From: Deltaproteobacteria bacterium
GTDB taxonomy: Bacteria; Desulfobacterota; Binatia; HRBIN30; JACQVA1
NCBI GenBank assembly: GCA_016210005.1
Contig: JACQVA010000008.1
Coordinates: 10,625-74,624 of the forward strand
Reading direction: 5' to 3'
DNA length: 64,000 bases
In this document: positions 28,586 to 52,521 of the stretch, piece by piece
Layout: the number at the start of each line of letters is the position of its first letter
Numbering within the stretch: position 1 is the first letter of the stretch
Notes under the pieces: generated by a model
What the model saw: the letters and a program-made list of their open reading frames with translations, nothing else
The model's database searches: none
What the model was told of the DNA's origin: nothing
Made by a program: the position numbers and the translations under genes

Positions 28586-29326
28586 TTGAGCAAGATCTAC
28601 GAAGCGCTGAAGAAGGCGGAAGAAGAGCGCGAACGCGTGCGCTGGACCGAGCCGGCGCCGGGCGCAGGGGGCGCCGAGCCCGCGTCGCCGCTCGCGCTGC
28701 CGCCCACCGATGTCGTCGCCGAGGATTACCAGCGGCTTCGGGCCAGCTTGGTCTCCGGACTGAGCCCCTCCGCGTTGCACACGATCTTGGTTGCTTCTGC
28801 GCGCCATGGCGAGGGCGCCAGTACGGTTGCCATCGGTTTGGCCACTGCTCTCGCCAAGGAGCGTGAGACGCGGGTGCTGCTGGTGGAAGGCAACTTGCGC
28901 CTGCCCAGTCTGGCCCGGATGCTGCCGGTTGCCCCTAACGGGGGCGTGAGCGATTTCATCAGTGGGCAACGCTCCGCCGAGTCGGTTGTGACCCGAGTGG
29001 ATGCGCTCAACCTGTCGGTGATTGTGGCAGGTAACCATGCGCGCGGTAGCATCGACCTCGAACAGATCAGCGCGCTGCTGGCACGGCTGCGCCCGCAGTT
29101 CGATTTCATTGTGATCGACGCGCCGCCGGTTAACCGCTATGCCGACGCATCAATCTTGGCCCCCAAAGTTGACGGCGTTATCTTGGTTGTGGAAGCTGAC
29201 CGTACGCCGTTGACCGAGGCCGAGACCGCTAAGCGACAGCTCGACAAAGTCGACGCGCGTATTCTCGGCGTCGTGCTAAACCGGCGCCGCTCATACATCC
29301 CGGCCTTTCTCGAAAGCTTGCTGTGA
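28586..29326 (+). CDS. BY-kinase-like (tyrosine autokinase family) protein with a degenerate Walker A motif.
   Basis: The P-loop region SARHGEGASTVAIGLA has GEGAST instead of GEGKST. Walker B IVIDAPP is present. The C-terminus has a single Tyr and no Tyr cluster. Confidence 0.7.
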   Translation: MSKIYEALKKAEEERERVRWTEPAPGAGGAEPASPLALPPTDVVAEDYQRLRASLVSGLSPSALHTILVASARHGEGASTVAIGLATALAKERETRVLLVEGNLRLPSLARMLPVAPNGGVSDFISGQRSAESVVTRVDALNLSVIVAGNHARGSIDLEQISALLARLRPQFDFIVIDAPPVNRYADASILAPKVDGVILVVEADRTPLTEAETAKRQLDKVDARILGVVLNRRRSYIPAFLESLL

Positions 29327-35061: not shown

Positions 35062-36462
35062 ATGAAGCGGGCCGTTGACTTGACTCTGGCGCTGGCCGGG
35101 TTGGTGTTCTTGCTCCCGCTCATGGCGCTGGTGGCGTTGCTGATCAAGCTCGACTCCGCCGGCCCGGTGTTCTTTCGCCAGCGACGCGTGGGGCGCGACG
35201 CCAAGCCGTTCGAGATCTACAAATTCCGGACGATGGTCGTGGGTGCCTATCAGATGGGCTCACGTCTGACGACCAAGCGCGATCCGCGCGTGACCCGCGT
35301 CGGGCAGATCCTACGGTGGTTCAAGATCGATGAGCTGCCCCAACTCCTCAACGTGGTGAGCGGCGAGATGAGCCTGATCGGCCCCCGGCCCGAGGACCCG
35401 TACTTCGTGCAGTTCTACTCAGCGGCGCAGCGGGCGGCGCTGTCGGTACGGCCCGGAATTGTCGGACCGAGCCAGATCTCAGGGCGCGACGAGCTGGAGA
35501 GCTATCCCGAGGGCTTGAAAGACACCGAAGGGTACTACGTGGACCATATTCTGCCCGATAAGCTCGCGCGCGACCTCGAGTACATCCGCAACGCCACGCT
35601 GATGGGGGACATCAAGTTGCTGCTGCACGGCGTCTGGGTCACTGTCCTGGGTGCAATCAAGACCAAGTACCTGTGGCGGCGCCGCAAGCGCATCGCTTTG
35701 ATGGCGGCCGACCTGGCATTGGTGGCGGTGGCCTATTGGGCAGCGGTCCTAATCCGCTACGAAGGGGCGTGGCCCGATGACGCGGCATTTGCGCTGACGC
35801 CGTTGCTGATCATCGTCCTCGTCCGGCCGGTTTCCTTGATGTACTACGGTGCCTACCAGGGCATTTCAGCCTACTTCGGCCTGTGGGACGTGGTGGCCTT
35901 GGTCAAAGCCGTCTCTTTCAGCGCGGTGGTCGCCGCCGGCCTGACGTTCTTTCTGGGCTTTCAGAAGTTTCCCCGCTCGGTGTTCGCGATTGATTGGGCC
36001 CTGGTCCTTCTGCTCATGGGGAACTTGCGCTACGGCCTGCGCGGCTGGGCGCGCCGCGGCGTGCACCAGCACCGCCCACGCAAGCAAAAGGCCCTCATCG
36101 TCGGTGCCGGCAGCGGCGGCGAGCAAATCAGCCGCATGTTGCTGGAAGATCCGTTGTCGCCCTACCGCCCGATCGGGTTCATCGATGAATCAGCCGAACG
36201 GTGGGGCTCGCTGATCCACGGCATCCGGGTGCTGGGCGGGAGCGCCGAGCTGGCGCTGGCGTTGTCGGCCAATGGCGTCAAAGCCGTGTTCGTGTGCCCG
36301 TCGGATTTACACGACGGCATGGCCGAGGACGTGATAACGACTTGCGAACGGGCGGGCGTTGACTACCGCATTGTCCCCGCCTTGACCGACTTATTGAATA
36401 CCGACGGCTTCACGGTGGAACGGCCGGGCTACGGCGCGCAGCGCAGTGTGGCGTCGGTGTGA
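35062..36462 (+). CDS. Polyprenyl-phosphate sugar-phosphate transferase (bacterial sugar transferase). The catalytic domain is N-terminal, followed by TM helices and a C-terminal Rossmann-like (CoA-binding-type) domain.
   Basis: Catalytic block [24 protein letters not shown]...[21 protein letters not shown] lies within the first 120 aa. Three to four TM segments follow, then [14 protein letters not shown]...GFIDE. Confidence 0.8.
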
Positions 36463-36489: not shown

Positions 36490-37503
36490 ATGTCGCAGGA
36501 TCTCGTGCTGGTAACCGGAGGCGCCGGTTATGTTGGTTCACATCTGGTCCGTAAACTGTTGGCCGATGGCTTCCGGGTGCGGATCTTGGACAATCTCCTT
36601 TACGGCGAGCACGGCATCGCCGATCTCCGTTCTGACCCGCGGCTTCAGGTGAGCGTAGGCGACATCTGCAGCCTGCGCGACGTTGCCCGTGCGGTGCAGG
36701 GGGTGCGCGCGGTGGTGGCTTTGGCGGCGGTGGTCGGTGATCCGGCGTGTGAGGTCGACCCTCAGGAGACCATGCGAATAAACTTCGAGTCGACCCGCTG
36801 TATGCTCGACGCCTGCCGCGAGGCGGGGGTGCGGCGGTTGGTGTTCGCCTCGTCGTGCAGCGTTTATGGGGCGAATGGCCAGGAGCTGTTACACGAGGGC
36901 TCTCATCTCAACCCGGTGTCGCTGTACGCGCGCACGCGCATCATGTCGGAGAACGTGTTGCTGCAGGAGCGTGGTCCGGTCGAGGTAATCATTTTGCGCC
37001 TGGCGACAGTCTGTGGGCAATCAACGCGCATGCGCTTCGATCTGATGGTGAACACGATCACGGCCCGCGCCGCTCGCGAGGGCAGAGTGCGGATCGTCGG
37101 GGTCGAACAGTGGCGCCCGCACTTGCACGTCCGCGACGCAGCCGCGGCGTTTGCTCGGGCTGTCGAAGCGCCGAGCGCGGCGGCCCAGGGAGGCATCTTC
37201 AACGTCGGCCACGAATCGCAGAATTTCACCATCGGTGATGTGGCCGAGAAGGTCGTGCAGCACCTGCCCGATACCGTCGTCGAGTATGCTAACGGCACCG
37301 GCGACCGCCGCAGTTATCGCGTCAGCTTCGAGCGCGTCCGCGAGCAGCTCGGCTTTGTCCCACAGTTCACGGTCGACGACGCGATTCGAGAGATTCGCAC
37401 TCTGCTGACCAACGGGGCGATCGCCGATATCGACGACGCTCAGTTCCACAACGTGAAATGGCTGCGGCGGACGGGCCTGCGCCCGGCGGCGGCGCCGGGC
37501 TGA
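36490..37503 (+). CDS. NAD-dependent epimerase/dehydratase (SDR family).
   Basis: VLVTGGAGYVGSHLV and the catalytic YxxxK region. Confidence 0.85.
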   Translation: MSQDLVLVTGGAGYVGSHLVRKLLADGFRVRILDNLLYGEHGIADLRSDPRLQVSVGDICSLRDVARAVQGVRAVVALAAVVGDPACEVDPQETMRINFESTRCMLDACREAGVRRLVFASSCSVYGANGQELLHEGSHLNPVSLYARTRIMSENVLLQERGPVEVIILRLATVCGQSTRMRFDLMVNTITARAAREGRVRIVGVEQWRPHLHVRDAAAAFARAVEAPSAAAQGGIFNVGHESQNFTIGDVAEKVVQHLPDTVVEYANGTGDRRSYRVSFERVREQLGFVPQFTVDDAIREIRTLLTNGAIADIDDAQFHNVKWLRRTGLRPAAAPG

Positions 37504-37509
37504 CCGCGC

Positions 37510-38571
37510 ATGCAGTCTCGCCCTCGCGTGACGGCCGCACTGATCGGATGCGGCCGCATCGCACAGGTGCACCAGCAGTACCTGGCCACAGTGCCGGAGG
37601 CGGAGCTGGTGGCGGTGTGCGACGCCGACGCCGGCGCGCGGGCGGCGATGAGCGCCCGCGCCGCGGTGCCGCCGTACGCCTCGCTGGAACAGCTGCTGGC
37701 AGCCGCTGCACCCCAGGTGGTCCACATCCTAACCCCGCCGCCAACCCACGCGCCGCTGGCGCTGCAAGCGCTGGCGGCCGGTGCTCACGTGCTGATCGAG
37801 AAGCCGATGGCGCTATCTGCCGCCGACGCGGATAGCCTGGTGGCGGCGGCGCACCGAAATAATTGTATTGTTACCGCAGATCATAATCGGTGGTTCGATC
37901 CGGTGGTGCAGCGGGCGCGGGCGCTGCTCGCCAGCGGCGCGCTCGGTACCCTCACCGGGGTCGAGATCTTCCAGGGCGCGGTCGGTGAGGGCGACGCCGC
38001 GGCGCTGGGCTGGAAGACGGCCTTGCCGGGCGGCCCGCTGCACGACGTCGCTCCGCATCCGCTCTATTTTCTGCGCCACTTCCTGGGCCCGATTGCTACC
38101 TTCGAGGTGATGGCAGAGCGCGACGCCAACGGAAACGTGGCCGAGGCGCGGGCGATCGCCCGGGGTGAAGCCGGGTGGGGGACGGTGACTCTGTCGCTGC
38201 GCGCACGCCCGGCCAGCAATTGGGTGCGGTTGCTGGGTTCGGTCGCCACCGCCGAGATCAACCTCAACCACATGACCTTGGTGGTCTATCGCGACCACCA
38301 GGTGTCGAAGCTGATCGGCAAGGTCCTGCCCAACCTCGACGTGGCCTGGCAGCTGGTGCGCGACACCGCGCGCAACGGGATGGAGTTCGTGCGCGGGAAG
38401 CAGCGTTTCTATCCCGGCATTGGCGCACACCTGCGCGAGTTCTATCGCTGTGTGGCGGGCGGTTTGCCGGCGCCGGTGAGCGCCGAGGCGGCCCGCGACG
38501 TGGTCGCCATGTGCGAGCAGACTTTGGCGGCGAACGGTGCCTCGCAGCCGGCTCGGGCGGTTGGCCTGTGA
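37510..38571 (+). CDS. Gfo/Idh/MocA family oxidoreductase (sugar-nucleotide dehydrogenase type).
   Basis: AALIGCGRIAQVHQ Rossmann N-terminus and the EKP motif (HVLIEKPMAL). Confidence 0.85.
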   Translation: MQSRPRVTAALIGCGRIAQVHQQYLATVPEAELVAVCDADAGARAAMSARAAVPPYASLEQLLAAAAPQVVHILTPPPTHAPLALQALAAGAHVLIEKPMALSAADADSLVAAAHRNNCIVTADHNRWFDPVVQRARALLASGALGTLTGVEIFQGAVGEGDAAALGWKTALPGGPLHDVAPHPLYFLRHFLGPIATFEVMAERDANGNVAEARAIARGEAGWGTVTLSLRARPASNWVRLLGSVATAEINLNHMTLVVYRDHQVSKLIGKVLPNLDVAWQLVRDTARNGMEFVRGKQRFYPGIGAHLREFYRCVAGGLPAPVSAEAARDVVAMCEQTLAANGASQPARAVGL

Positions 38572-39530
38572 GAGCGCTGGTTACAGGCGCCGCCGGGTTT
38601 CTCGGGCGCCACGTAGTTGCACGACTACTGGCAGAGCAGGTGGCGGTGCGCGCGCTGGTGCGCCGCGAGCACGCCGCGCTGCCGGCGGCCGCCGAGCAGA
38701 TCGTCGGTGATATCTGCGACGAGGGGGCGGTGGCCCGCGCCGTGGCGGGCGTGGACTGGGTGATCCACACGGCCGCGCGGGTGGCCACCAGCGGTACGTG
38801 GGCGGAATTCGAGGCGGCTAACGTCGCCGGTACCGAGTTGGTCTTGCGCACTGCCGCCGCCGCCGGGGTGGCGCGCGTGGTGCACGTGAGTTCTTTGAGC
38901 GTCTACGCGGTGCCGGCGAACGGGGTCACGATCACTGAGGACAGCCCGTACGAAGCCGGTGCCGGCGAGCGGGGCTTCTACTCGAAGTCGAAGTTGATCG
39001 CCGATCGCCTGGTCATGCAGGCTGCGCACGGCGGCGCCCCGGCCACCGTGGTGCGGCCGGGGCTGTTGTACGGGCCGGGCCGCCGGCCGCCGTTGGCGCG
39101 CCAGGCGGTGGCGCTCGGACCAGCGCGCGTCATCCTCGGCAGCCGAAAGTATCTGATGCCGATGAGCTACGTCGAAAACACGGCCGCGGCGCTGCTGCTA
39201 GCGGCACGGGCCGAAGGTGCAGCGGGCAGAGCTTACACCGTGGTCGATGCCAACGTACCCCACGCCGAGTATGCGCGGCGTTATCGCCAAGCCGCCGGCC
39301 AGCAGTGGCAGGCGGTATATGTGCCGGCCGGATTACTCATGCCGTTGGCTCGCTGTGCCGAGCTGGCGAGTGCCGTCATCCGTCGTGCCGCGCCGCTTAC
39401 CCGGCACCAACTCCGCCGCGCCACTTGGAGTGCCTTCTACGACTGTGCTCGGGCTGAGCGCGAGCTGGGCTGGCGCCCGCAAGTGGATCTCGAGGAAGGA
39501 TTGCGCCGCAGCTTTGCGGCAATTGACTGA
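38568..39530 (+). CDS. NAD-dependent epimerase/dehydratase.
   Basis: The GTG start overlaps the upstream stop (GTGA). N-terminus VRALVTGAAGFLGRHVV. The N-terminal extension in the track ORF (38175) is spurious. Confidence 0.8.
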   Translation: MRALVTGAAGFLGRHVVARLLAEQVAVRALVRREHAALPAAAEQIVGDICDEGAVARAVAGVDWVIHTAARVATSGTWAEFEAANVAGTELVLRTAAAAGVARVVHVSSLSVYAVPANGVTITEDSPYEAGAGERGFYSKSKLIADRLVMQAAHGGAPATVVRPGLLYGPGRRPPLARQAVALGPARVILGSRKYLMPMSYVENTAAALLLAARAEGAAGRAYTVVDANVPHAEYARRYRQAAGQQWQAVYVPAGLLMPLARCAELASAVIRRAAPLTRHQLRRATWSAFYDCARAERELGWRPQVDLEEGLRRSFAAID

Positions 39531-40276
39531 TGCCGCTTGCAGCGCCGGCCGAAATCCAGGGCTACTATCGTGACCGCGAGGTGGTGGCGCGCTACCTCGA
39601 ACGTCGCACCGCGCAGCCGCTCAACGGTACGTTGCACGCGGCGCAAGTGCGCTTCCTGCGCCGCCTGATCGCCGAGCGCGCTCCGCAACGTGTGCTCGAG
39701 ATTGCCCCCGGACCGGCTCGTTTGACCGCTGAGCTGCCGCTGCCTGGTCTCGGTCTGGCCCTTGAGTACAGCGAAGGCATGCTGGCGGCTGCTAGTGACC
39801 GGATTACACCCACCTCCCATTGGCGCCTGGCCCGCGCCGACGCATTCCACCTGCCGGTGCGCGACGGCCAGGCCGACTTGGTGTTTACGTTGCGATTCAT
39901 TCGCCGCTTTCAAGCCGCCGACCGGCAGCGGGTGTACGCCGAGATCCATCGTGTGCTCAAACCCGGCGGCAGCTTGGTGTTGGATGCGCAGAACCGGGCG
40001 GTGGCGCTGCCCCATCGGCTCGAACGGGGCTTGGAAAAATATCCGGTGCACGACGAGCTATATGATCGGCCGCAGCTCGAGGCGGAGTTAGTGGCGGCCG
40101 GTTTTCGCGTGCGGCACCTCGAAGGCATGATCCGGCACGCGCGGCTCCAGCGCTCACTCAACCGGTTGCGGCGAGTACGCCTCAGTGCGGTCGCGCGAGC
40201 GTTGATCGCGGTTTTGGAGCACGTACCGAGCGCCAATCCGTCGACCTGGATGGTGTTGTGCGAGAAGACAGGCTGA
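39530..40276 (+). CDS. Class I SAM-dependent methyltransferase.
   Basis: VLEIAPGPARLT motif I and VLKPGGSLVLD. Confidence 0.7.
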   Translation: MPLAAPAEIQGYYRDREVVARYLERRTAQPLNGTLHAAQVRFLRRLIAERAPQRVLEIAPGPARLTAELPLPGLGLALEYSEGMLAAASDRITPTSHWRLARADAFHLPVRDGQADLVFTLRFIRRFQAADRQRVYAEIHRVLKPGGSLVLDAQNRAVALPHRLERGLEKYPVHDELYDRPQLEAELVAAGFRVRHLEGMIRHARLQRSLNRLRRVRLSAVARALIAVLEHVPSANPSTWMVLCEKTG

Positions 40277-40279
40277 GCG

Positions 40280-41629
40280 ATGGCGCGGACGGTCGGTAAG
40301 AACGCCCTCTATACCCTGATTGCCGGACTCGGCTCGTTCGCCATGGGTTTGGGCACAGGCATCATCACCGCGCGCATGCTCGGGCCGCACGACCGCGGCA
40401 TCTTCTCGCTGGTGTCGGTGCTGCCGCATACCGTTGTGGCCTTCGTCAAGCTGGGCATGGCGCAGGGCAGCATTTACGCCATTCGCCGCCAGCGTGCCGA
40501 CCCTGGCGCCGTGGCGGGGCAGCTCCTGCTGGCGGCGTTCGCCATCAGCCTGCCGGTTATGGCCGGCGTGTATGTGTACAAGGCGCAGGCAGCGCGGCTG
40601 CTGCTCGCAGGGGCTAACCCGCTGTACTTCCTGCTGGCACTGCCGCTGATCCCGCTGCTGTTGCTCGAGAGCTATTTCTTCGGCGTACTACAGGCGGTGG
40701 ACCGCTTCGGTATCTTCAATCGCCGCCGTTTGCTGGCGGGGGCCGGCGGCCTGATCGGCATGCTGCTGGCCCTGGTGATCTGGCGCGGCGGCTTGACGGC
40801 GGCCATTCTCGTCTCGGTCGGCATTACCGCGCTACTCGATCTCTGGCTGATCGTCACGGTGGCGCGCGTGTGTGGGATGCATTTCCGCTGGGACGGCAAG
40901 TTGGCGCGCGGGCTGCTGAGCTTCGGCCTGAAGTCCCATCTGCAGACAATCGCCACCCACATGCACTTCCGCGCCGACTTGTACTTGGTTGCGCTGCTGC
41001 TAAACCCCACCGACGTCGCATTCTACTCGATTGCGTCACGACTGGCGGAGGTGATTCTGTTCGTTCCCGAGTCGCTGGGCTTGGTGGTCTACCCGAAGCA
41101 GGCGGGCTCCTCTAAGGCGGTGTTGGAAGACCTCACCGCCGCCTCGTGCCGGCACGTGGCGCTGATGACAGTGCTGGCGGGGCTAGCGCTGGTAGCTGTC
41201 GGGCCTTGGCTGGTGGTGGTGTGGTACGGGCGCGATTACGCCCCGGCGGGTGCGCCTCTGTTCTATGTCGTGCCGGGCGTGATCATGATGTCGCTCTTCT
41301 TCATGTTGTCGCGCAGCTTCACCAGCCAGAATCGGCAAGAGATCAACATCGTCGCTTCGGGCGTGGCGCTGGGGTGCAATGTGCTGTTCAACATCTACCT
41401 CATCCCCCGCATGGGCATCTCCGGAGCTGGCTTGTCGACTGCCCTTTCGTATTCGCTGGCCACGCTGATCCTGGCGCGCGTATACCTCAAGGAGTCGGGG
41501 AAGACAGTTCGTGATCTGCTGGTAATCAAGCGTGATGATCTGGTGCTCTACCGCCAGCTGCTGGCCGAAGTGATCGGCCGCCGTGGCAGCATTCGGCCGG
41601 CAGTGGCGACGCAAGGCGGTGCTCGTTGA
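40280..41629 (+). CDS. Wzx-type oligosaccharide flippase (MOP superfamily polysaccharide biosynthesis protein).
   Basis: 449 aa with about 12 to 14 TM helices and a polysaccharide-biosynthesis-protein-like layout. Confidence 0.75.
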   Translation: MARTVGKNALYTLIAGLGSFAMGLGTGIITARMLGPHDRGIFSLVSVLPHTVVAFVKLGMAQGSIYAIRRQRADPGAVAGQLLLAAFAISLPVMAGVYVYKAQAARLLLAGANPLYFLLALPLIPLLLLESYFFGVLQAVDRFGIFNRRRLLAGAGGLIGMLLALVIWRGGLTAAILVSVGITALLDLWLIVTVARVCGMHFRWDGKLARGLLSFGLKSHLQTIATHMHFRADLYLVALLLNPTDVAFYSIASRLAEVILFVPESLGLVVYPKQAGSSKAVLEDLTAASCRHVALMTVLAGLALVAVGPWLVVVWYGRDYAPAGAPLFYVVPGVIMMSLFFMLSRSFTSQNRQEINIVASGVALGCNVLFNIYLIPRMGISGAGLSTALSYSLATLILARVYLKESGKTVRDLLVIKRDDLVLYRQLLAEVIGRRGSIRPAVATQGGAR

Positions 41630-42747
41630 TGGCCGAGCTTCGGTTCAATTTGGCCGGTGCCGGCGGGTCGCTGCGCAGTCACTACGCGCCCTTCATGGCG
41701 TATGCCGAACAGCATCTGTTGCCGCTGCGGATCGCCGCAGGCGAGGTGGCGCCCGTCATCGACGCGGTGCTGGAGTGGCATGAGAGCCCGCCCCCGCAGG
41801 ACCGCCACACGGCCGAACCGGAATTGGCCGGGCTGGAGCGCCTGGATCGCGATCTCTACGTCGGGCCGGGGCGCGTCTGCTGGTTTCGCATCGATGACTT
41901 CCGGGACTTGCACCTGCGCTTTGATTGGGACGGCCGGCAGCTACACGTCCACGGGCACTACTACTTCTACCTCAGCCGCGACCGGCTGCGCGACCGCACC
42001 AAACGTTGGTGGGCCGGCGCGCGCCTGCGGGCGCAACGGCTGAATCGGTTCACCACCTTGCTCTACTATCTGGCCTACTATCCCGCGTTCTGGTGGTGCG
42101 AAACGCAGATGGGCTTTCACCCGATTCATGCGGCCGGGGCGGTGACCGATGCCGGTGCAGTTGTGCTGGCCGGGCCGAGTGGGGTCGGGAAGTCGACCCT
42201 CGCCCTGGCGCTGGCGGCGCAGCCGGCGCAGCTGTTGTCTGAAACGTTTCTGCTGCATCGTGGCGCAACGCTGCGCCCGGTGCGGGAGCCGCTGCTGCTT
42301 GATGAATGGAGCCGCTCATGGCTGGGCAGTGCCATGAGCGGCCTCGAACCGCTGCGCGCGGGCTTCGTGTTCAGCCGCAACGGCTACCATCGACTGGCGG
42401 GGTTGGCCGAAGAAGGCCGGGCGGCGGCGGTGCTCTTGCCGCGCCGGGCGCCGCGCACCTACGTGCGGGCGATCAGCGCCGAAGAGGCCCATCAGCGCCT
42501 CAGTGCCGCCAACCAGATTGTGAAGGATATGCGGCGCTATTGGGCGTTTGCCGCCGCGCTCGATCCGCTGGCGCCGAGTGGGCTGATGGCGCAGCGCGAG
42601 GCGGAGCTGGCTCGGCTGACCGCCGGAGCCCGCTGCGGCGAATTCGGCCTCGGCCCCGAGCTGAAACTCGGGGATGCGGTGCGCCAGGTGCGCGAGTTCC
42701 TGAGCGCCGAGTCTCTCCCTGTGACGCGGCGAGCGCGGTGCGCATGA
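41626..42747 (+). CDS. HPr-kinase/phosphorylase C-terminal-domain-like P-loop protein (HprK-related kinase).
   Basis: VVLAGPSGVGKSTLALALAAQPAQLLSETFLLHRG aligns with the HprK pattern LtGeSGiGKSelALeLikrGhrLvaDD. Start and stop both overlap neighbouring genes (ATGA). Confidence 0.55.
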   Translation: MMAELRFNLAGAGGSLRSHYAPFMAYAEQHLLPLRIAAGEVAPVIDAVLEWHESPPPQDRHTAEPELAGLERLDRDLYVGPGRVCWFRIDDFRDLHLRFDWDGRQLHVHGHYYFYLSRDRLRDRTKRWWAGARLRAQRLNRFTTLLYYLAYYPAFWWCETQMGFHPIHAAGAVTDAGAVVLAGPSGVGKSTLALALAAQPAQLLSETFLLHRGATLRPVREPLLLDEWSRSWLGSAMSGLEPLRAGFVFSRNGYHRLAGLAEEGRAAAVLLPRRAPRTYVRAISAEEAHQRLSAANQIVKDMRRYWAFAAALDPLAPSGLMAQREAELARLTAGARCGEFGLGPELKLGDAVRQVREFLSAESLPVTRRARCA

Positions 42748-43973
42748 GGCCGTTGCGGGTGATGTTCATCGAAGCGTCCAGCGGGGGGGTGGTTGGGGGT
42801 TCGCTGACCGGACTTTACCACCTGATCCGCGGGCTCGACCGGAGCGCGTTTGCCTGCAGCATGGTGCTGTATGAACCGAAGACGATCGAGGCCGATCTGG
42901 CGGCGCTCGGCGTGCCCGTCTATCACGTGTCGCGCCGGCGAGTCCCGAAGCAGCATGCGCTGTTGGGTGTCCAGAGCTACCAGCGCGCCAAGCGCGTCGG
43001 CGTGATTGCGCGCGGCCTGCGTTGCGGCCGCCAAGCGGTACGACTGGCAGTCGAGGAAGGCCCGGCTGCGCTGGGCTTACGCCGCGTCATTCGCCGTGAG
43101 CGGCCCGACGTGTTGCACTTGGGCAACGGACTGCGTGCCAACTTCGATGCCGTGCTGGCTGCCCGCTTAACCGGTACGCCGGTGGTTTGCCACATCAAGG
43201 GTTTCGAGAAGTACAGCACGCGCGAGCGGTTTGCTGCCGCCAAGATCGACGCCCTGGTATGCATGACCCAGGCGGTACAGGCGCACTGCGCCGCGAACGG
43301 TGTGGTCGCCCGGCGCAACGAGGTGGTTTACGACGCGCTCGACGAGGACGGCTTTTGCCCGGCTCGCAGCCCGGCGCAGGTGCGCGCCGAGCTGCCCGGG
43401 CTGGCGCCGCAAACACCGTGCGCCGGGATCGTCGGCAACATCCAGGAGTGGAAAGGGCAAGCGGTAGTGGTGGAAGCCATGGCGCTGGTGCACCGGCGCG
43501 TTCCGCAAGCCCGCTGTCTCATTGTCGGCGGAGCACATCGTGCGGGTGCCGCCTACGAGCTGGAGCTGCGCCGGCGTGTGCGCGAGGCCGGCTTGGAGAA
43601 CGTGGTTCACTTCACCGGGTTTCGTGCCGATATCGCCGACGTCATCAACGCGCTCGACGTCGTCGTCCATGCCTCGGTGCGCCCGGAGCCGTTCGGCCGA
43701 GTGATTCTCGAAGGCATGCTGCTGCGCAAGCCGGTGGTGGCGGCAGCGGCCGGCGGCGTACCGGAGTTGATCGCCGACGGCGACACCGGCTTCCTGGTGC
43801 CCCCGGGCGATGCGGCGGCGCTGGCCGAGCGGCTGATCACACTGCTGGGCGACCCGGAGCTGCGCCAGCGGATCGGCTCGCGGGCCCAGGCCTGGGCCCG
43901 CGAGCGCTTCAGTCTGGCCCACCACGTCGCCAGCATGACCGGCATCTACCATGAAGTGACTAGGACACACTGA
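42744..43973 (+). CDS. Glycosyltransferase family 4.
   Basis: N-terminus MRPLRVMFIEASSGG; C-terminal EPFGRVILEGMLLRKPVVAAAAGGVPELI. Confidence 0.85.
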   Translation: MRPLRVMFIEASSGGVVGGSLTGLYHLIRGLDRSAFACSMVLYEPKTIEADLAALGVPVYHVSRRRVPKQHALLGVQSYQRAKRVGVIARGLRCGRQAVRLAVEEGPAALGLRRVIRRERPDVLHLGNGLRANFDAVLAARLTGTPVVCHIKGFEKYSTRERFAAAKIDALVCMTQAVQAHCAANGVVARRNEVVYDALDEDGFCPARSPAQVRAELPGLAPQTPCAGIVGNIQEWKGQAVVVEAMALVHRRVPQARCLIVGGAHRAGAAYELELRRRVREAGLENVVHFTGFRADIADVINALDVVVHASVRPEPFGRVILEGMLLRKPVVAAAAGGVPELIADGDTGFLVPPGDAAALAERLITLLGDPELRQRIGSRAQAWARERFSLAHHVASMTGIYHEVTRTH

Positions 43974-43975
43974 TT

Positions 43976-45754
43976 ATGCGAATTCTCGGCATCTCGTGCT
44001 TCTATCATGACGCCGCGGCGGCGTTGCTCGACGACGGCGTCTTGGTGGCGGCGGCGGAGGAAGAGCGCTTCTCGCGCAAGAAGCACGATTACGACTTCCC
44101 GGCATTGGCGATCCGGTTCTGCCTGGCGCAGGCCGGCATCACCACCGCTGACCTCGACTATGTCGTCTTCTACGAGAAGCCGTTCGTCAAGTTCGAGCGC
44201 ATCCTGACCACGGCGCTGCAAGTCGTGCCCAAGTCGTGGAAGGTGTTCGGCGATGCCATGACGACATGGCTGCTCGACAAGCTGTGGGTAAAAAACCTCA
44301 TCAGCAAAGAGCTGGGTGTACCACCGTCGAAGATCCTGTTCAGCGAGCATCACCTGTCGCACGCCGCCAGCACCTTTCTTTGTTCGCCCTTTGATGAAGC
44401 GGCGGTGCTGACGATTGACGGCGTCGGCGAGTGGGCGACTGCCACCATGGGGCGTGGAAAGGGCACCGACTTGCAGTTGCTGCGTGAGATCCGCTTTCCG
44501 CACTCGGTCGGCCTGCTCTACAGCGCGTTCACCGCGTTCTTGGGCTTCGAGGTCAACGAGGGCGAATACAAAGTCATGGGCATGGCGCCTTACGGCAAGC
44601 CGCGCTACCTCGACAAAGTCCACAAGCTCATTCAGCTCGGCCGTGATGGCAGCATCTGGCTCGATATGGATTACTTCTGCTTCCACCACTCCTCGCACCA
44701 GACCTACAAGCCGAAGTTCACCGAGCTGTTTGGCGAACCGCGCGATCCCTCGTGGCACTTCTTCACCGAAAGCTCGGGCTATCCGTCGTACTTCGAGCCC
44801 AAACCGGCCAACTACGGCGAGTTGGCCAAGAAGAACGAGTACTACGCGGACGTGGCCGCCAGTATTCAACAGGTTACCGAAGAGATCGTCCTGGCCATGG
44901 CGCGCCGGCTCCACGAAGAGACCGGACTCGACAAGCTCTGTCTGGCTGGCGGGGTGGCGTTGAACAGTGTGGCGAACGGGCGGGTGCAGCGTGAAACCCC
45001 GTTCAAGCAGCTCTTCATCCAGCCGGCCGCGGGTGACGGAGGCGGGGCGCTGGGCGCGGCGCTCTACGCCTATAATTGCGTCTTGGGCCGGCCCCGTAAG
45101 TTTGTGATGCGCCATGCTTACTGGGGGCAGGAGTTCGGCGCCGGCCCGATCAACGACTTCGTACGTTCCACCGGGGCGCCGGCGCAGACCTTTAATAAGG
45201 AAGAGGACCTCCTCGACCGGGTGGTGGAGGAGTTGCAGGCGGGGCGCGTGGTCGGGTGGTACCAAGGCCGCTTCGAATGGGGGCCGCGGGCGCTCGGCGC
45301 CCGCAGCATCATCGCCGATCCGCGCCGCGCTGACATGAAGGAAGTCGTCAACGTCAAGATCAAGTTCCGCGAGCCGTTCCGCCCGTTTGCGCCGTCGGTG
45401 TTGGCGGACGCCGCCGAGCGCTTTTTCGACTTACCCGATGCGCCGTCGCACTATCCCGCTCGCTTCATGCTGTATGTAGTCGATGTCAAGAACGGCCAGG
45501 GCGACGTCGTCCCTGCGATCACGCACGTGGACGGCACGGCGCGCTTGCAGACCGTGCACCGAGCGGAGAGCCCGCTCTACTACCGCTTGATCGAGCGCTT
45601 CGGCGCCGCGACCGGTGTGCCGGTAATCATGAACACCTCGTTCAACCTGAAAGGCGAGCCAATTGTGACCACCCCAGCCAATGCTTTCAGTACCTTTCAG
45701 CGCAGCGGCATGGATACGCTGGTGCTGGGCAACACCGTGGTCTCGAAAGCGTAG
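43976..45754 (+). CDS. Carbamoyltransferase (NodU/CmcH family).
   Basis: N-terminus MRILGISCFYHDAAAALLDDG...; 592 aa with a carbamoyltransferase C-terminal domain. Confidence 0.85.
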   Translation: MRILGISCFYHDAAAALLDDGVLVAAAEEERFSRKKHDYDFPALAIRFCLAQAGITTADLDYVVFYEKPFVKFERILTTALQVVPKSWKVFGDAMTTWLLDKLWVKNLISKELGVPPSKILFSEHHLSHAASTFLCSPFDEAAVLTIDGVGEWATATMGRGKGTDLQLLREIRFPHSVGLLYSAFTAFLGFEVNEGEYKVMGMAPYGKPRYLDKVHKLIQLGRDGSIWLDMDYFCFHHSSHQTYKPKFTELFGEPRDPSWHFFTESSGYPSYFEPKPANYGELAKKNEYYADVAASIQQVTEEIVLAMARRLHEETGLDKLCLAGGVALNSVANGRVQRETPFKQLFIQPAAGDGGGALGAALYAYNCVLGRPRKFVMRHAYWGQEFGAGPINDFVRSTGAPAQTFNKEEDLLDRVVEELQAGRVVGWYQGRFEWGPRALGARSIIADPRRADMKEVVNVKIKFREPFRPFAPSVLADAAERFFDLPDAPSHYPARFMLYVVDVKNGQGDVVPAITHVDGTARLQTVHRAESPLYYRLIERFGAATGVPVIMNTSFNLKGEPIVTTPANAFSTFQRSGMDTLVLGNTVVSKA

Positions 45755-45763
45755 TGCGCGGCC

Positions 45764-46954
45764 GTGACGCGCGGGCAGGAGGTGAGCGCGTGGGCGCTGT
45801 TGCTGCTGCTGGGGCTGCTTCTGGGCGGCGGCCTGGTCGAAGCCGGCGTCCGCGTCTTGCATCTCGTGCCCGATCGCTTTTGGGAGCCGGATGCGAAGCT
45901 GGGGTGGCGGCACAGCGCTGGCAGGACCGGCTGGTGGACGCAAGAGGACCGGGAGTTCCTGGTCCCGATCAGTATAAGTCGGCAGGGACTGCGCGATGTC
46001 GAGCACGCGTATGCCAAGCCTGCCGGAGTGACGCGAGTGTTGCTGTTGGGAGACTCGTTCATTGAGGCATTGCAAGTGCCACTGGCAGCGACCGTAGCAC
46101 GGCGACTAGAGGCGCATCTCGGGGCAACGACCGAAGTCATCAACGCCGGCGTCAGCGGCTATGGCACCGCCAGTGAGTTGCTGTTTCTACGCGATCAAGG
46201 GTTGCGCTACGCCCCCGACGTCGTGCTGCTGGCCTTCTATCCGGGTAATGACGTGAAGAACAACAGTGCGACGCTCGAAGACATCCTGCCACCGGTTTAT
46301 GACGGCGGCGGCAAGCTGGAACGGGTGACGGCTCCACTCGAAGGGTTCGCGCGCGCGCGCACGGGTTGGCGCGATCACGTACAGGCATATCGCTACACCC
46401 GCCAACTGCTGCTGCGTCACCCGGAGCTGACGGCGCCCTTGCGCCGCCTCGGGGTGGCGGCAAGCCTGGATGCCCCGCGCGCGGCGAGGGAGCGCGACGG
46501 TGTGCCGGTTGACTACTGGGTTTATGCCCCTGAGCCCAGCGCCGAGTGGGAAGACGCTTGGCGGCGCACGGAGTCGTTGCTCGCCGCCGTGCGCGCTACG
46601 GCGATCAGTGCCGGGAGCCGGTTCGCGATCGCGGTCATTCCCAGCCGCTATCAGATCTATCCCGAGCTCTGGGCGGAAACGCTCGCCGCGCATCCGGCGA
46701 TGCAGGGACGGGCGTGGGAGTTGGCCGGTCCAACTCGGCGCTTGCTACGGTGGTGCGAAACGCAGGGCGTGCCCTGCCTCGACTTGGCGGCGGGTTTGGT
46801 GGCGGCGGTGAAGACGAGCGCGCCGTTGTACTTCCACCACGATGGCCATTGGACCGCTGCCGGGCACGAAACGGTAGCGCAACAGCTGAAGAACTTCTTG
46901 CGCGAGCGGCAGCTCGTGTCAGTGCAGGAGGCAGAGACGCATGAGCTTCATTGA
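45764..46954 (+). CDS. SGNH/GDSL-hydrolase-family protein (AlgX/AlgJ-like polysaccharide O-acetyltransferase component).
   Basis: Signal anchor; LLLGDSF (GDS block); DGHWT. An alternative GTG start lies at about 45782. Confidence 0.7.
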   Translation: MTRGQEVSAWALLLLLGLLLGGGLVEAGVRVLHLVPDRFWEPDAKLGWRHSAGRTGWWTQEDREFLVPISISRQGLRDVEHAYAKPAGVTRVLLLGDSFIEALQVPLAATVARRLEAHLGATTEVINAGVSGYGTASELLFLRDQGLRYAPDVVLLAFYPGNDVKNNSATLEDILPPVYDGGGKLERVTAPLEGFARARTGWRDHVQAYRYTRQLLLRHPELTAPLRRLGVAASLDAPRAARERDGVPVDYWVYAPEPSAEWEDAWRRTESLLAAVRATAISAGSRFAIAVIPSRYQIYPELWAETLAAHPAMQGRAWELAGPTRRLLRWCETQGVPCLDLAAGLVAAVKTSAPLYFHHDGHWTAAGHETVAQQLKNFLRERQLVSVQEAETHELH

Positions 46955-47120
46955 AGGACTCCGCAACCGCTTGGGCATCGCCGGCGAGCTGCTGTCATTC
47001 CTTTGGCAGCGCAAGCTGTGGTGGATGATTCCGATGGTCTTCGTGCTGCTAGTGTTCGGCGGCCTCATGGTCACCGCCCAGAGCACGGCGCTGGGGCCGT
47101 TCATCTATACGCTGTTCTAG
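46941..47120 (+). CDS. Small membrane protein, DUF5989-like (59 aa). It is not in the ORF track.
   Basis: MSFIEGLRNRLGIAGELLSFLWQRKLWWMIPMVFVLLVFGGLMVTAQSTALGPFIYTLF. The gene overlaps the upstream gene by 14 nt. Confidence 0.6.
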   Translation: MSFIEGLRNRLGIAGELLSFLWQRKLWWMIPMVFVLLVFGGLMVTAQSTALGPFIYTLF

Positions 47121-47166: not shown

Positions 47167-50100
47167 ATGATTGACCGATACGGAAAATCCCTGCTCCTGG
47201 CAGTCGCGCTCTTGGGGCTTAGTGCGCCAATGGTGCAAGCTGCGCCGGTCCTGTTTGTTCGCACGACCGGTGACGACGGGGCGGATGGGTTGTCGCCCGC
47301 TACCGCCCTGCAGAGCATCCGTTCGGCGGTGCAGCGCCTAAGTGAAAGCGGCGGACAGGTGATCGTAGGCCCAGGCACATATGTCGAAGGGGATATCTCG
47401 CCGCGGACACTTGCCGGGCCGGGCTTGCTGCGCCCGGATGCGCTGGAGATTATCGCAGATCGCGATGGGCGGCTGACTAGCGAGCTACCCGGGCCGGTGA
47501 TCGTCGACGCCGGCGTGGCCGGCAAGCCGACAGGGTTCGTGCTGCTCGGCGAATCGAATATCCGCATAGATGGATTCCACGTGCGTGGTGCGTCCGACGC
47601 CGGTATTCAAGTTCGGTTCAATACCGCGGCAGGCACGCCGTCCGCGGATGTCACGATCATAAATTGTGTGGCGTTCGCGAACGAGAAGCGCGGTATCGAT
47701 GTTCGCGATGCCGACCGGGTTACGGTGGCGAACAACCTAACGTACAATAACGGCTCGACCGGCATCTCGGTCGGTGGTGGGATCCGTGGCTCCGCCGACG
47801 CTGTAATCATGCAGAACACCAGCGTTGGCAATGGCATCTACGGGATCTTTGTCGGCGATGGCAATCAAAGCGCCGTCGCCTCGAGTAACGTCATCGTCTT
47901 GTCGAATGTGACAGCGTACAATGGCGTGGCGGGGATCAAAGCGGCCCCGGCTTCGCAGCGCACGTACGGCAGTGCTTTCAATGTGAGCGCCGACGCCTTT
48001 GAGCCGGTGACGTCACAAGACCCGACCGACCTGGCCGCGGATCCCTTGCTGGCGAACCCTGCTGGTGCGCCAGGCGGGCTGGGTGGGGGCGAACTTGCCG
48101 ACGATGATTTCCGCCTGCGAGCGGGAAGCCCTGCGCTCGATTACGGACCCGCTGACGCGACAACCGTCGGAATCACCGGCAGCGCGGCGGTGGACGGCGG
48201 CCCTGACGATGGCACGGTTGACGCCGGCTATCATCAGAGCAACACGGCGACGCAACTGGTGGTGCCGGCGATTCCCTTGGTGCCGATCTTCGTTCGCATC
48301 ACCGGCAGTGATTCAAACGGCGGCGGGACGGCGGACCAAGCGTTGCGCACGATTGGGGCTGCAGCCGCTCGCGCTCGTGCCGGAAACCGCGTTGTCGTTG
48401 GCGCTGGGGAGTACCGCGAAGGTGATATCAGCCTGTTGGATCAGTCGGGAACGAAGCATCGGCCGGTAGAGTTTGTCGCGGACCACGATGGCATCTGGAC
48501 TGGTGATCAGGGTGCGGTGATCATAGATGCCACCGGCTGGCAGACTGCTTTTAACCTTCTTGGAAGCCGCTACGTGAAGATCGACGGTTTTAGCGTTACC
48601 GGCGGGCGCGATTCCGGCATCCAGATCCGCGCGCGCGCAACGGTAGATGGCCTACACGGCGCCGACAACGTTACTGTGATCAATTCGCTGGTATTTTCCA
48701 ACGGCGGTAGCGGAATTCTGGTCAGGGATTCAGCCGAAGCGGCAATATACAATAACCTGGTGTATGCCAATGCCACGGGTGGAGTGGCGATCGGCGGTCT
48801 CGAGGTTGGTTCGCCGCGGGCACGCGTCGCCAACAACACCGTGTATCAGAACGGTGGACACGGGATCCTGATCGGGAGCCGGGGCGATCAAGACAGGCGG
48901 GGATCACCCGGGGCACTGGTCCTGAACAATATCCTGGATCGCAACGGCGGCCGCTCCCTGCTGGTGACGCCGCTGTCGCTTCGGGATTTCAGCGCCACTG
49001 CGAACTTGGATGGGGACATCGTCGGCGCGATCGGCTTCGTCAATCCGGCCGGGGCCGACGGCCAGCTCGGCGGCGCGGGCTTCCTGGATGACGACTTTAG
49101 GTTACAGCAGCGCAGTGCCGGGCAGGAAACGACGAGTGTCGCGGTCGATTATAGTGCCGGCATGGCCGCACCGATGGGGCTGCACTTCGGCTCGACGCGC
49201 ACTGACCTGGTCGGCGACGAAGGGCTTGCCGATGCCGGTTTTCACTATCGCCGTGTCGGGCAACGGCCGGTGTTGGGCACGCTCGCTACCCTGCAAGCGC
49301 GCCTGGCCGGCGTTAACGCAAACCGGCTTCTCTTCGTGGCTGTCGATGGCGACAATGGCGATGGGCGGACGCCGGCCAACGCCTTTTCGACCATTCGGGC
49401 AGCAGCTCGCGTGGCAATGCCCGGCGATACAATCGTGGTAGCGCCGGGCCGGTATGCGGAGGGAGATGTCTCGTTCAACAACAGCGGCACTGTGCTGCAA
49501 CCGATCGCAGTAGTGGCGGATTCCAGCGGAGCACTATCAGGCACTGCCCCGGGGCGTGTAGTGGTCGATGCGACAGGGTACGATACAGGTTTCGTGCTGT
49601 TGCGTCGCAGCTTCATTCAGATTCGCGGATTCTACATCAGCGGGGCACGAGAGGCCGGTATTCAAGTGCGGGCATGCTCGGGGGACGGATCGTTGTGTGC
49701 AACGCGTGCAGGATCCGATCACGTCACCATCGCCGGAAATGTGATTTACTCCAGCCGCCGGGGTATCGACGTCATCGACTCCAGCGACGCGGTGATCTTC
49801 AACAATCTTATATACGCCAACGAGAGCACCGGCGTCACCGTTATCGGCGAGGTGCGCTCTGCCGACGGCACGCAGGTGACGAACAACACGCTCTACCGTA
49901 ACGGTGGCGACGCGCTCTTGCTCGCGGGCACACTGGGAGCACCGAACGCCAGCGTAGTTAATAACTTGATTCAAGGGAGTGGTCTCCTCGGGGTGAAGGC
50001 GAAGCCCGAGGCGCGGCCGACGCTGGTGCTGAGCCATAACATCAATCTCGACGGTGCTAGTGCAGGAACGCCGCCGGACCCGGACGACCGAGGAATGGAC

Positions 50101-52462: not shown

Positions 52463-52521
52463 AACCGGGCGGGACAGCGGTAGGCAATCCCACACACACT
52501 TCGTTGAGCAGGAAGAGGGCA

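Follow-up and report, generated by a model that had tools for sequence, protein, structure and literature searches.

The protein encoded at positions 41629-42747 of the window, that is the whole stretch of 64,000 nucleotides that was analysed, is, judging from its structural model and sequence profiles, a member of the PEPCK/HprK P-loop superfamily, in which it forms a separate uncharacterised family distantly related to HprK and PEPCK. It is apparently a catalytically competent, ATP-dependent phosphotransferase, as the model and the conservation of its residues suggest, and its most constant genomic partner is a SAM methyltransferase (MT). With this MT, the protein may work as a tailoring phosphotransferase on an intermediate of a glycan pathway, a tentative reading that we judge plausible rather than probable.

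Gene model and family

The window carries a complete Wzx/Wzy, XrtA/PEP-CTERM-style EPS locus with many tailoring enzymes. The target gene and its closest neighbours are as follows:

39530-40276, + strand: 248-aa class I SAM methyltransferase, MT (Pfam Methyltransf_11/25)
40280-41629, + strand: Wzx-type flippase, between the MT and the target (PF01943/PF13440/MurJ)
41629-42747, + strand: target gene, P-loop phosphotransferase of the PEPCK/HprK superfamily, family uncharacterised (ORF, sequence, AF2 model and fold matches)
42744-43973, + strand: GT4 glycosyltransferase, ATGA-coupled to the target (Pfam; NCBIfam)
43976-45754, + strand: carbamoyltransferase of the tailoring block (Pfam)
45764-46954, + strand: SGNH/AlgX-like protein of the tailoring block (Pfam)
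46941-47120, + strand: 59-aa ORF of the tailoring block, at the DUF5989 position

On the + strand, the target ORF may start at TTG 41626 or at ATG 41629 and it ends with TGA 42745-42747. Since homologues begin with MAE or MGE and since a 100% identical database protein (P0001, from a Binatia-like MAG and named 'hypothetical protein' by NCBI) has 372 aa, ATG 41629 is the likely start. The ORF given by the first-pass annotation (41626-42747) is confirmed, but its length of 373 aa should probably read 372. Both motifs quoted there were found in the protein, VVLAGPSGVGKSTLALALA at residues 178-196 and LLSETFLLHRG at residues 202-212, and Pfam matches bear out the flanking Wzx-type flippase and GT4 genes. 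An ATGA coupling had been described on both sides of the gene. It is present downstream (ATG 42744, TGA 42745-42747) but not upstream, where the TGA stop of Wzx (41627-41629) has one base in common with the ATG start (TGATG) or three with the TTG start (TTGA).

The gene is real, far beyond chance. A word-indexed search found 189 homologues of the target (best 2e-248), and an exhaustive search at E<=1e-10 gathered a family of 342 clusters at 50% identity.

Fold and relatives

The AF2 model of the target reached a pLDDT of 94.1 and a pTM of 0.92. In a Foldseek search, PckA or HprK/P accounted for all of the top PDB matches (27/27), from which other NTPase classes were absent, including the shikimate- or adenylate-kinase-type fold that had been named as contradicting an HprK-like assignment. 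The best match, over most of the length, was PckA (9a4u_A, E 1.9e-7, TMq 0.49), a match that rests on one integrative-model entry, PEPCK crystal structures being missing from the fold list. HprK/P was matched through 1kkl, 1ko7, 1jb1, 2qmh, 3tqf and 1knx, with E from 3e-4 to 5e-2 and a probability of about 1.0.

Profile searches point in the same direction. The wide family profile (A2) matched ATP-PEPCK 1j3b at 29.0 bits (E 1.7e-6, domain E 4.4e-6) along the segment 'ylerfrglhlLHAsaveldgkgivlaGlgGvGKSTlal', which spans the stretch from the His to the P-loop and reaches past Walker A. Other PEPCKs were matched at E of about 5e-4 and HprK 1jb1 at 1.9e-3. A Pfam search with the target itself gave no match to the PEPCK family HMM, nor to Pkinase or APH. 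It is extremely improbable that the P-loop belongs to another NTPase class and resembles HprK by chance. Many AAA, ABC and nucleotide-kinase matches (E 1e-3 to 1e-8) were indeed returned by Pfam and PDB sequence searches, but all of them cover about 25-30 residues round the P-loop, whereas the alignments with PEPCK and TIGR04352 run upstream of it through the conserved His motif. Moreover, the AAA+, ABC and adenylate- or shikimate-kinase-like classes were rejected on the fold search, which gave PckA and HprK/P alone.

A check against TIGR04352, TIGR04355 and PF07475 had been proposed in the first-pass annotation. TIGR04352 and TIGR04355 are the top two NCBIfam families for the target as well as for 46 and 45, respectively, of 46 clade members. 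Nevertheless, the target scored 27.9 bits with TIGR04352 (E 1.2e-6; query 156-211 on model positions 87-144 of 280) and 23.3 bits with TIGR04355 (query 165-206 on 146-187 of 351), the cut-off being 200 in both cases. These are local homologies of about 40-55 residues round the His motif and the P-loop, and even the best TIGR04352 match among the 46 relatives (E 1.4e-10) is still local. TIGR04355, with 351 model positions, has an overall length similar to the target, but the cassette partners of the two families were not seen at the target locus. PF07475 was matched at 12.2 bits (E 0.13) over residues 176-203 only, against a gathering threshold of 33.3, and ScmC TIGR04249, for which the cut-off is 125, at 15.8 bits. 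In precomputed matches, PF27840 shows '-' for P0001 and weak or faint hits in roughly a third of the homologues. TIGR00679 was weakly matched by six of the 46 relatives (best E 0.006). Membership in PF07475, TIGR04352, TIGR04355 or ScmC (TIGR04249) was rejected, the target lying far under their curated cut-offs. The HprK/P-type kinase fold announced by the first-pass annotation thus holds for the core, but it does not extend to membership of the named families, and the protein should be named neither HPr kinase nor 'HprK-related kinase A/B'. In a literature search on HprK-related and HPr kinase-like kinases, the family was not found.

In common with the target, HprK/P has the fold of the catalytic domain (by Foldseek), a GxSGxGKS-type P-loop that a His precedes by about 15 residues, and an acidic residue that follows the Lys at a distance of about 17. 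Its N-terminal domain, in contrast, is unrelated (no match to the 1ko7 and 1knx N-domains), and the partners of the target are a methyltransferase and GT4; the ORFs annotated in the window and in related loci include neither HPr nor PTS genes. PckA provides the best fold match and the best specific profile match (1j3b, 'MHASA...' segment), but it is about 530 aa long against 372 aa, and it acts in central metabolism whereas the context of the target is glycan tailoring.

Domains and catalytic residues

The protein consists of three parts: a family-specific beta-rich N-terminal domain, a nucleotide-binding core of PEPCK/HprK type and a helical C-terminal region. Its main elements, with conservation counted in 59 sequences of the wide family, are:

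41629-42021, + strand: N-terminal beta-rich domain, residues 1-131 (invariant columns, stand-alone model)
42022-42111, + strand: long aromatic helix, residues 132-161, RFTTLLYYLAYYPAFWWCE, leading to the nucleotide-binding core (secondary structure of the model)
42127-42129, + strand: His167 of the HPIHAAG motif (57/59; aligned with the 'PMHASA' His of ATP-PEPCK 1j3b)
42172-42198, + strand: P-loop / Walker A GPSGVGKST, residues 182-190 (conservation in 59 sequences)
42238-42246, + strand: S204-E205-T206 (family consensus S-D-N; acidic 59/59)
42286-42291, + strand: Glu220-Pro221 of the EP.LLD motif (E220 55/59, P221 42/59)

The charged and aromatic residues Y25, H29, W50, R71, D73, R74, D75, W85, R87 and D89 of the N-terminal domain are invariant in the clade. 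Modelled as a stand-alone domain it reached a pLDDT of 93.8, and it gave no significant fold match in the PDB (best E 0.26), in a library that contains full-length HprK structures. Because this domain on its own has no match, PEPCK included, a 'mini-PEPCK' architecture with a PEPCK-like N-terminal domain was rejected. The aromatic helix that follows carries P152 (59/59) and W155 (47/59).

In the P-loop, G182, G187 and S/T189 are present in all 59 sequences, K188 in 58 and G185 in 57. Downstream of the P-loop helix comes a strand, and position 205, which lies after it, is always acidic (D in 51 sequences, E in 8). This residue may serve as a metal ligand or as a general base, and by its spacing its position is consistent with Asp178/179 of HprK and Asp269 of PEPCK. 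The His...Lys-Thr...Asp spacing of the target also fits the metal-binding residues of PEPCK (H232, K254, T255 and D269 in the E. coli enzyme). R/K250 is conserved in 58/59 sequences. The catalytic set as a whole (His167, GxxGxGK[ST]T, [DE]205 and Glu220) is kept down to about 20% identity.

Genomic partners

Loci related to the target were gathered on metagenome contigs with a profile built from a P-loop-free sub-alignment, and 81 related loci were compared for their neighbours, 60 being informative upstream and 48 downstream. An MT orthologue lies upstream of the target homologue in 41/60 loci and adjoins it in 31/60, while it is absent from the available upstream flank in 19/60. The MT and kinase genes overlap, stop to start, in loci L005 and L006, and there is an overlap in the contig of P0137. 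In a family member with 31% identity the order of the two genes is reversed, with an overlap. The Wzx gene that stands between them in the window is a variable insert, its presence and orientation differing among related loci. MT-kinase pairs also stand alone, outside EPS loci (L005, L007, L036, L041 and L077), without glycan genes within 10 kb, so that the substrate of the kinase need not stem from a local EPS pathway. A convergent thiolase-like gene was considered as a conserved third gene of these stand-alone loci and was set aside, as it probably reflects lineage synteny.

Downstream, a GT4 orthologue with 58-81% identity directly follows the target homologue in 30/48 loci, and the block made of GT4, carbamoyltransferase and SGNH genes is found in 30/48 loci as well, the tailoring block (43976..47120) being conserved in the EPS-embedded clade. 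The best NCBIfam match of the GT4 is stp2, a PEP-CTERM/XrtA-system glycosyltransferase. Co-occurrence with both Wzx and GT4 had been suggested as a check; it is borne out for GT4, but Wzx is variable. In the same way, the kinase had been described as hard-wired into polysaccharide assembly, which is right for the EPS context of the window but overlooks the MT as the more constant partner and the pairs outside EPS loci.

Natural fusions in the family are of the types GT4-kinase, kinase-GT4, GT2-kinase, ABC exporter-kinase and RtcB. The members fused to a GT or an ABC exporter are only about 26-27% identical to the target, and the broad family includes an RtcB-linked branch, so function may not carry across the whole family. 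MT-kinase fusions were looked for among family members and none was found. The long N-terminal extensions of P0130, P0161, P0192 and P0236 seem to be artefacts of gene calling, and P0259 appears, from motifs only, to be a 5'-truncated GT2 fusion.

A defence-system reading of the locus was not supported by PADLOC, in which the target and GT4 had no match and the MT matched mad2 by its generic MTase domain only.

Possible functions

The first-pass annotation had offered a sugar or lipid kinase as an alternative, and this is the reading that we favour. The target and the MT would be the two halves of a tailoring module that acts on the cytoplasmic side, prior to flipping by Wzx, on a glycan-pathway intermediate, which may be a sugar or lipid-linked repeat unit that GT4 builds or lengthens, or the precursor of a small-molecule substituent. 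The N-terminal domain would recognise the substrate, the phosphate would be transferred via the His167 / Lys188-Ser189 / Glu205 / Glu220 site, and methylation of the same substrate, possibly of the phosphate itself, would fall to the MT. The fold, the conservation of the active site and the gene linkage are established; what the substrate is and which of the two reactions comes first are inferences. A glycan role is suggested by the MT linkage, by GT4 downstream of the gene (30/48 loci) and by the fusions with GTs and ABC exporters.

A precedent for the logic of a kinase plus an MT is WbdD, the chain terminator of E. coli O9a, which phosphorylates and then methylates the glycan terminus (PMC3482155). 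The likeness lies in this functional logic only, that is a kinase and a SAM methyltransferase in a polysaccharide locus. The kinase domain of WbdD has a eukaryotic-protein-kinase-like fold, is fused to its MT and serves an ABC-transporter-dependent pathway, whereas the target has the PEPCK/HprK fold, a separate MT gene and a Wzx/Wzy-dependent locus. It would be unlikely, in our view, that the family provides the first glycan-directed PEPCK/HprK kinase, acting on a sugar or lipid-linked oligosaccharide and adding with the MT phosphate and methyl, possibly as methyl-phosphate, to Wzx/Wzy-dependent EPS in Binatia and relatives. If true, WbdD would have a convergent, structurally unrelated counterpart, in the form of a two-gene tailoring module that is portable. 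The tailoring of glycans or small molecules would then be added to the superfamily by a family that is widespread (about 340 clusters at 50% identity) and has a full catalytic set and a new N-terminal domain. This would also give a handle on the phosphate and methyl groups that decorate environmental exopolysaccharides and that are currently unpredictable from sequence. As the MT-kinase pair is small and cloneable, with two genes, the question is directly testable.

The glycan-tailoring role is weakened by the fact that, PEPCK aside, the characterised members of the superfamily, the HprK branch, are known only as kinases of Ser in proteins or peptides, namely HPr (Ser46 for HprK) and the precursors of lasso and LPP RiPPs (PMC8498205, PMC13381572). 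The main rival is therefore a peptide or protein Ser/Thr kinase, whose target would be either a RiPP-like or PEP-CTERM-type secreted peptide or protein, glycosylated later on (phosphoglycosylation), or one of the pathway's own components, the MT or GT4 for instance. We regard it as possible, though on the unlikely side. The RiPP HprK-like kinases (paeninodin PadeK type, pseudomycoidin PsmK, LppK) and ScmC belong to the same superfamily, and many members of the family have weak ScmC matches (PF27840/TIGR04249). Clusters of HprK-like kinases hold MsbA-like exporters and are glycosyltransferase-rich (PMC8498205; PMC13381572). MsbA-like ABC exporters and GTs, as in the LPP clusters (PMC13381572), likewise stand beside some distant members of the family, and distant members adjoin or are fused to ABC_membrane-type exporters. 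The tight coupling with the MT would also suit an enzyme and its substrate or regulator. On the other hand, Pfam annotation revealed neither PqqD/RRE nor a leader peptidase nor an NTP-transferase in the window, L001, L003 or L005, and the annotated loci of the target differ in this, as in having no precursor peptide, from those of RiPP HprK-like kinases. A conserved small ORF beside the gene is absent too, the largest cluster covering 7 of about 80 loci and looking like off-frame shadows, while a 38-aa ORF of L011 overlaps the fusion gene, is unremarkable and looks spurious. The RiPP form of this reading was thus left unsupported in the loci searched. Moreover, fusion with a catalytic GT4 or GT2 domain is more typically seen in enzymes that act at consecutive steps of a pathway, and the family profile links more strongly to PEPCK, which acts on small molecules, than it does to HprK. 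Another explanation, which we find improbable, is that the protein binds a nucleotide without being a kinase and is phosphorylase-like or pyrophosphate-producing, an ATP-driven scaffold or chaperone of the MT and GT4, or a user of PEP- or oxaloacetate-like acids. The superfamily does include the decarboxylating phosphotransfer of PEPCK and the phosphorylase activity of HprK/P, PEPCK is the strongest profile link of the family, and overlapping genes and fusions suit a physical complex. Yet what the family conserves is the whole phosphotransfer set and not the P-loop alone, and the N-terminal domain is unlike the substrate-binding N-domain of PEPCK.

The BY-kinase homologue

Another gene of the window bears on a regulatory role of the target:

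28586-29326, + strand: BY-kinase homologue, Walker A and A' both degenerate (TIGR01007; context only)

It scores 113.6 bits with TIGR01007 (cut-off 108). The Walker A motif reads SARHGEGAST, with Ala in place of Lys, Walker A' reads VEGNLR, with ExN in place of DxD, and the C-terminal Tyr cluster is absent, which agrees with the earlier remark that this kinase looks dead. The degenerate changes recur in an orthologue at 64% identity. It had been proposed from this that the target could be the actual regulatory Ser/Thr kinase; in such a case it would control EPS export and compensate for the degenerate BY-kinase, with the PGT, Wzz or the BY-kinase-like protein as the protein that it phosphorylates. 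The degeneracy, seen in the orthologue as well, and the position of both genes in the same operon-like array speak for this role, which we nevertheless consider very unlikely. The neighbours that are conserved with the target, the MT and GT4, lie about 12 kb away from the Wzz/BY-kinase pair, and the target does not covary with Wzz or BY-kinase, stand-alone MT-target pairs having neither within 10 kb. Fusions in the family involve GTs, ABC exporters and RtcB but in no case Wzz or BY-kinase, and the sole tie between the target and the BY-kinase homologue is their presence in one large locus.

The EPS locus and the kinase-like gene

The window holds a complete Wzx/Wzy-type EPS locus, parts of which best match models of the XrtA/PEP-CTERM system (PMC1569441). 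Its components are given below, those from MT to the beta-helix protein in their order after the GFO and epimerase genes.

ExeA-like ATPase (TIGR03015, 281 bits)
Poly_export protein
Wzz chain-length determinant (TIGR03007)
28586-29326 (+), BY-kinase homologue (TIGR01007, 113.6 bits, cut-off 108)
Wzy_C protein (TIGR03097)
Several GT4s, stp2/EpsE-like
FemAB-like GNAT
DegT
35062-36462 (+), polyprenyl-phosphate glycosylphosphotransferase (priming)
Two epimerases and a GFO oxidoreductase
39530-40276 (+), class I SAM methyltransferase, 248 aa (MT)
40280-41629, Wzx-type flippase
41629-42747 (+), kinase-like gene, from its likely start (the target)
42744-43973, GT4
Carbamoyltransferase
SGNH/AlgX-like protein
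46941-47120 (+), 59-aa hydrophobic ORF overlapping the end of the SGNH gene
47167-51300 (+), 1377-aa secreted beta-helix protein with repeated NosD/Beta_helix units
Further GTs, sulfatase-like proteins, PMT_2, MBOAT and SGNH proteins

The target frame on the + strand has two possible starts, TTG (41626) and ATG (41629), and ends with the TGA at 42745-42747. The ATG is the likely start because the closest homologues begin with MAE or MGE and because the 372-aa database protein P0001 ('MAG: hypothetical protein HY699_01230 [Deltaproteobacteria bacterium]') matches at 100% identity along its full length. The first-pass annotation had described a real ORF, at 373 aa probably one residue too long, and both motifs that it quoted as well as the Wzx-type flippase upstream and the GT4 downstream are present. 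The coupling by ATGA overlaps that it proposed holds for the GT4 junction, a true ATGA, but not for the upstream one, where the Wzx stop and the target ATG have one base in common (TGATG). From 36490 to 47120, neighbouring genes either overlap or stand no more than 10 nt apart.

Fold and family assignment

The target had been read as an HprK-like kinase, with PF07475, TIGR04352 and TIGR04355 as the families concerned. It scored 12.2 bits with PF07475 (cut-off 33.3), 27.9 with TIGR04352 and 23.3 with TIGR04355 (both 200) and 15.8 with ScmC TIGR04249 (125); since every score lies below its cut-off, membership of these four families is ruled out. TIGR04352, TIGR04355 and ScmC are the top NCBIfam matches of the target, as they are in 46, 45 and 21 of 46 clade members, respectively, and the TIGR04352 alignment covers residues 156-211, extending upstream of the P-loop. 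PF27840 (named 'ScmC' in precomputed annotations), a weak precomputed match in many homologues, would be the likeliest family to capture proteins of this type.

From 46 homologues, AlphaFold2 gave a confident model of the target (pLDDT 94.1, pTM 0.92) with four parts.

Residues 1-112, beta-rich N-domain
Residues 119-161, helices including a long aromatic helix
Residues 164-281, alpha/beta core with the P-loop
Residues 284-359, helical C-terminal part

The first 27 PDB fold matches were all B. subtilis PckA or HprK/P. PckA was matched with E 1.9e-7 (TMq 0.49 over 425 columns) through one integrative-model entry, PEPCK crystal structures being missing from the match list, and HprK/P, with five organisms represented, at E 3e-4 to 6e-2. 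No other PDB fold fell below E ~1. Because adenylate-kinase, shikimate-kinase, AAA+ and ABC folds were absent from these matches, the alternative of a shikimate- or adenylate-kinase-like fold finds no footing, and a P-loop from a different NTPase class is extremely improbable. Independently of the fold search, a wide family profile (59 sequences, down to ~20% identity) matched T. thermophilus ATP-PEPCK 1j3b (29 bits, domain E 4.4e-6) with the segment 'ylerfrglhlLHAsaveldgkgivlaGlgGvGKSTlal', other PEPCKs at ~5e-4 and HprK 1jb1 at 1.9e-3.

The N-domain modelled alone (pLDDT 93.8) gave no significant PDB fold match (best E 0.26, TM at most 0.28) and is family-specific, neither PEPCK-type nor HprK-type. 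Its clade-invariant residues are common to EPS-embedded (P0008, P0056) and stand-alone (P0114) homologues. The HprK-like assignment stands for the fold and falls for family membership. The target represents a new, uncharacterised family inside the known PEPCK/HprK superfamily, and its annotation as HPr kinase or HprK-related kinase A/B is to be avoided.

Active site

Among the 59 sequences of the wide family, Pro152, Gly182, Gly187 and Ser/Thr189 are conserved in all, Lys188 and Arg/Lys250 in 58, His167, Gly185 and Asp/Glu300 in 57, Glu220 in 55, and Thr190 and Ser204 in 51; Gly182, Gly185 and Gly187 are the P-loop glycines. Position 205 is acidic throughout (59/59; Asp in 51, Glu in 8, including the target itself). 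These residues are spaced His...(21)...Lys-Ser/Thr...(16)...Asp/Glu, as in the HprK/P set (His140, Lys-Ser and Asp178-179) and in the E. coli PEPCK metal-binding set (His232, Lys254-Thr255 and Asp269); alignments suggest this residue correspondence. Such a conservation pattern would be expected of a working phosphotransferase, whereas a degenerate P-loop would not show it. Firm features of the protein are its superfamily fold, its intact catalytic set and its family-specific N-domain.

Genomic partners of the family

In an exhaustive profile search, 342 clusters (50% identity) passed E<=1e-10 and 103 of them E<=1e-30; most are full-length proteins, 340-390 aa long. Loci were taken from metagenome contigs via a P-loop-free seed (77) and from direct look-ups, and annotated against the window proteins. 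Sixty loci extend 800 nt or more upstream of the target; in 31 of them an MT orthologue (50-71% identity) is immediately adjacent to it, and in 10 others the orthologue lies farther upstream behind a variable insert, often with Wzx and in some cases with GNAT, KASIII/ACP, PLP-decarboxylase or ATP-grasp-like genes. Of the 48 loci that extend 600 nt or more downstream, 30 have a GT4 orthologue (58-81% identity) directly after the target, usually accompanied by carbamoyltransferase and SGNH genes. At least one of these two partners occurs in 33 of the 35 loci informative on both sides. Co-occurrence with GT4 is recovered in other loci; the presence and orientation of Wzx vary among them. Linkage to MT is firmly established, and so, clade-specifically, is that to GT4 and the tailoring block.

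Ten informative loci carry MT-target pairs without the GT4 block, and no other EPS-locus homologues lie beside the pairs with long flanks (L005, L007, L036, L041, L077) within the available 5-10 kb on either side. The two genes overlap in loci L005 and L006, and again in a 31%-identity member where their order is reversed (target then MT). In a neighbour-joining tree most stand-alone copies fall in one clade, and the EPS-type subclade of the window has another stand-alone group as its sister; the MT partnership has therefore outlasted more than one change of context.

The MT-kinase interval (40277-41628 in the window) is an insertion hot-spot (locus L001 1976-9996, locus L003 5417-9854). Many loci have no insert there; others carry Wzx, which may point either way, a GNAT, ATP-grasp-like genes, KASIII together with ACP, or a PALP enzyme together with an Orn/DAP decarboxylase.

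Distant members

Members at ~26-27% identity to the target include GT4-kinase (P0169), kinase-GT4 (P0183), GT2-kinase (P0257) and ABC exporter-kinase (P0163) fusions; P0259 is probably a second GT2-kinase fusion. P0183 and P0169 adjoin an ABC_membrane-type exporter and an APH-family kinase, and the P0257 locus has eight GT genes and Wzx. Another branch is linked to the RtcB RNA-ligase family by two fusions and one overlapping gene pair (L093 5169-7701; proteins P0187 and P0196), which points to an entirely different role for that branch, possibly one related to nucleic acids. Function is thus not uniform across the broad family, and its own clade has to weigh most for the target.

An ABC_membrane-type exporter (618 aa), an APH-family kinase and a kinase/GT4 fusion recur together as a module (L011 4361-12355; L014 1-5713; L013 96-4967), with the exporter fused directly to the kinase in L013. 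It resembles RiPP or glycolipid export clusters. A 38-aa ORF called in L011 looks spurious.

Proposed function

Tentatively, the target may be an ATP phosphotransferase acting on a glycan-pathway intermediate in tandem with MT. Its N-domain would recognise the intermediate, onto a hydroxyl of which the ATP gamma-phosphate would be moved, and in the window locus this would take place on the cytoplasmic side, prior to Wzx flipping. The pair would work much in the manner of WbdD, in which phosphorylation of a glycan terminus is followed by its methylation (PMC3482155). Kinase and MT form a small module that lends itself to testing and that, if the proposal is true, could bring glycan tailoring into the range of the HprK/PEPCK superfamily.

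That the target is instead a Ser kinase for a peptide or protein seems somewhat unlikely. Those relatives outside the PTS that have been characterised are RiPP Ser kinases, such as those of paeninodin and pseudomycoidin (PMC8498205), but PqqD/RRE, peptidase and NTP-transferase were not found in the window or annotated relatives, and no conserved small ORF lies beside the target (best cluster 7 of ~80 loci, with off-frame composition); these missing RiPP hallmarks lower, but do not abolish, the probability of a peptide substrate, and a protein such as MT is a conceivable one. A nucleotide-dependent role other than that of a kinase is improbable, and no defence-system signal was found for the target.

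The BY-kinase homologue had been judged dead, and rightly: its Walker A motif (SARHGEGAST) has Ala in place of Lys (GEGAST), its Walker A' (VEGNLR) has ExN for DxD, and it lacks a C-terminal Tyr cluster. As a 64%-identity orthologue (L065 145-867) has the same Walker substitutions, it is a maintained pseudokinase-like component of the XrtA-style locus. The further idea that the target replaces it as regulator is very improbable, since the target does not co-vary with Wzz or with the BY-kinase homologue. From the initial interpretation the HprK/PEPCK-type fold is retained, the named families are given up, and this replacement lacks support.

Other features of the locus

Three alkaline-phosphatase-superfamily genes (Sulfatase, Phosphodiest, Sulfatase; 21384-24939 (+) and 52504-53901 (+)), the first with a 210-residue N-terminal extension, may act on phospho- or sulfo-groups carried by the polymer; this would be relevant if the target makes a phosphorylated glycan. 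The glycosylphosphotransferase has Bac_transf N-terminal (residues 1-196, aligning to TIGR03025 positions 257-440) and CoA_binding_3 C-terminal (277-439), the reverse of the usual WbaP/WcaJ order; its L003 orthologue (41-1525) has the same arrangement. The 59-aa ORF occupies the position of a 59-aa DUF5989 gene after carbamoyltransferase and SGNH in related loci. Downstream of the tailoring block, the beta-helix protein is conserved in related loci (34-39% identity); candidate identities are polysaccharide lyase, epimerase-like protein and PEP-CTERM-type cargo. At the locus edge, a 568-aa fusion of an LPG_synthase_TM membrane domain with Methyltransf_11 (61563-63269, +) is a second, membrane-anchored methyltransferase.
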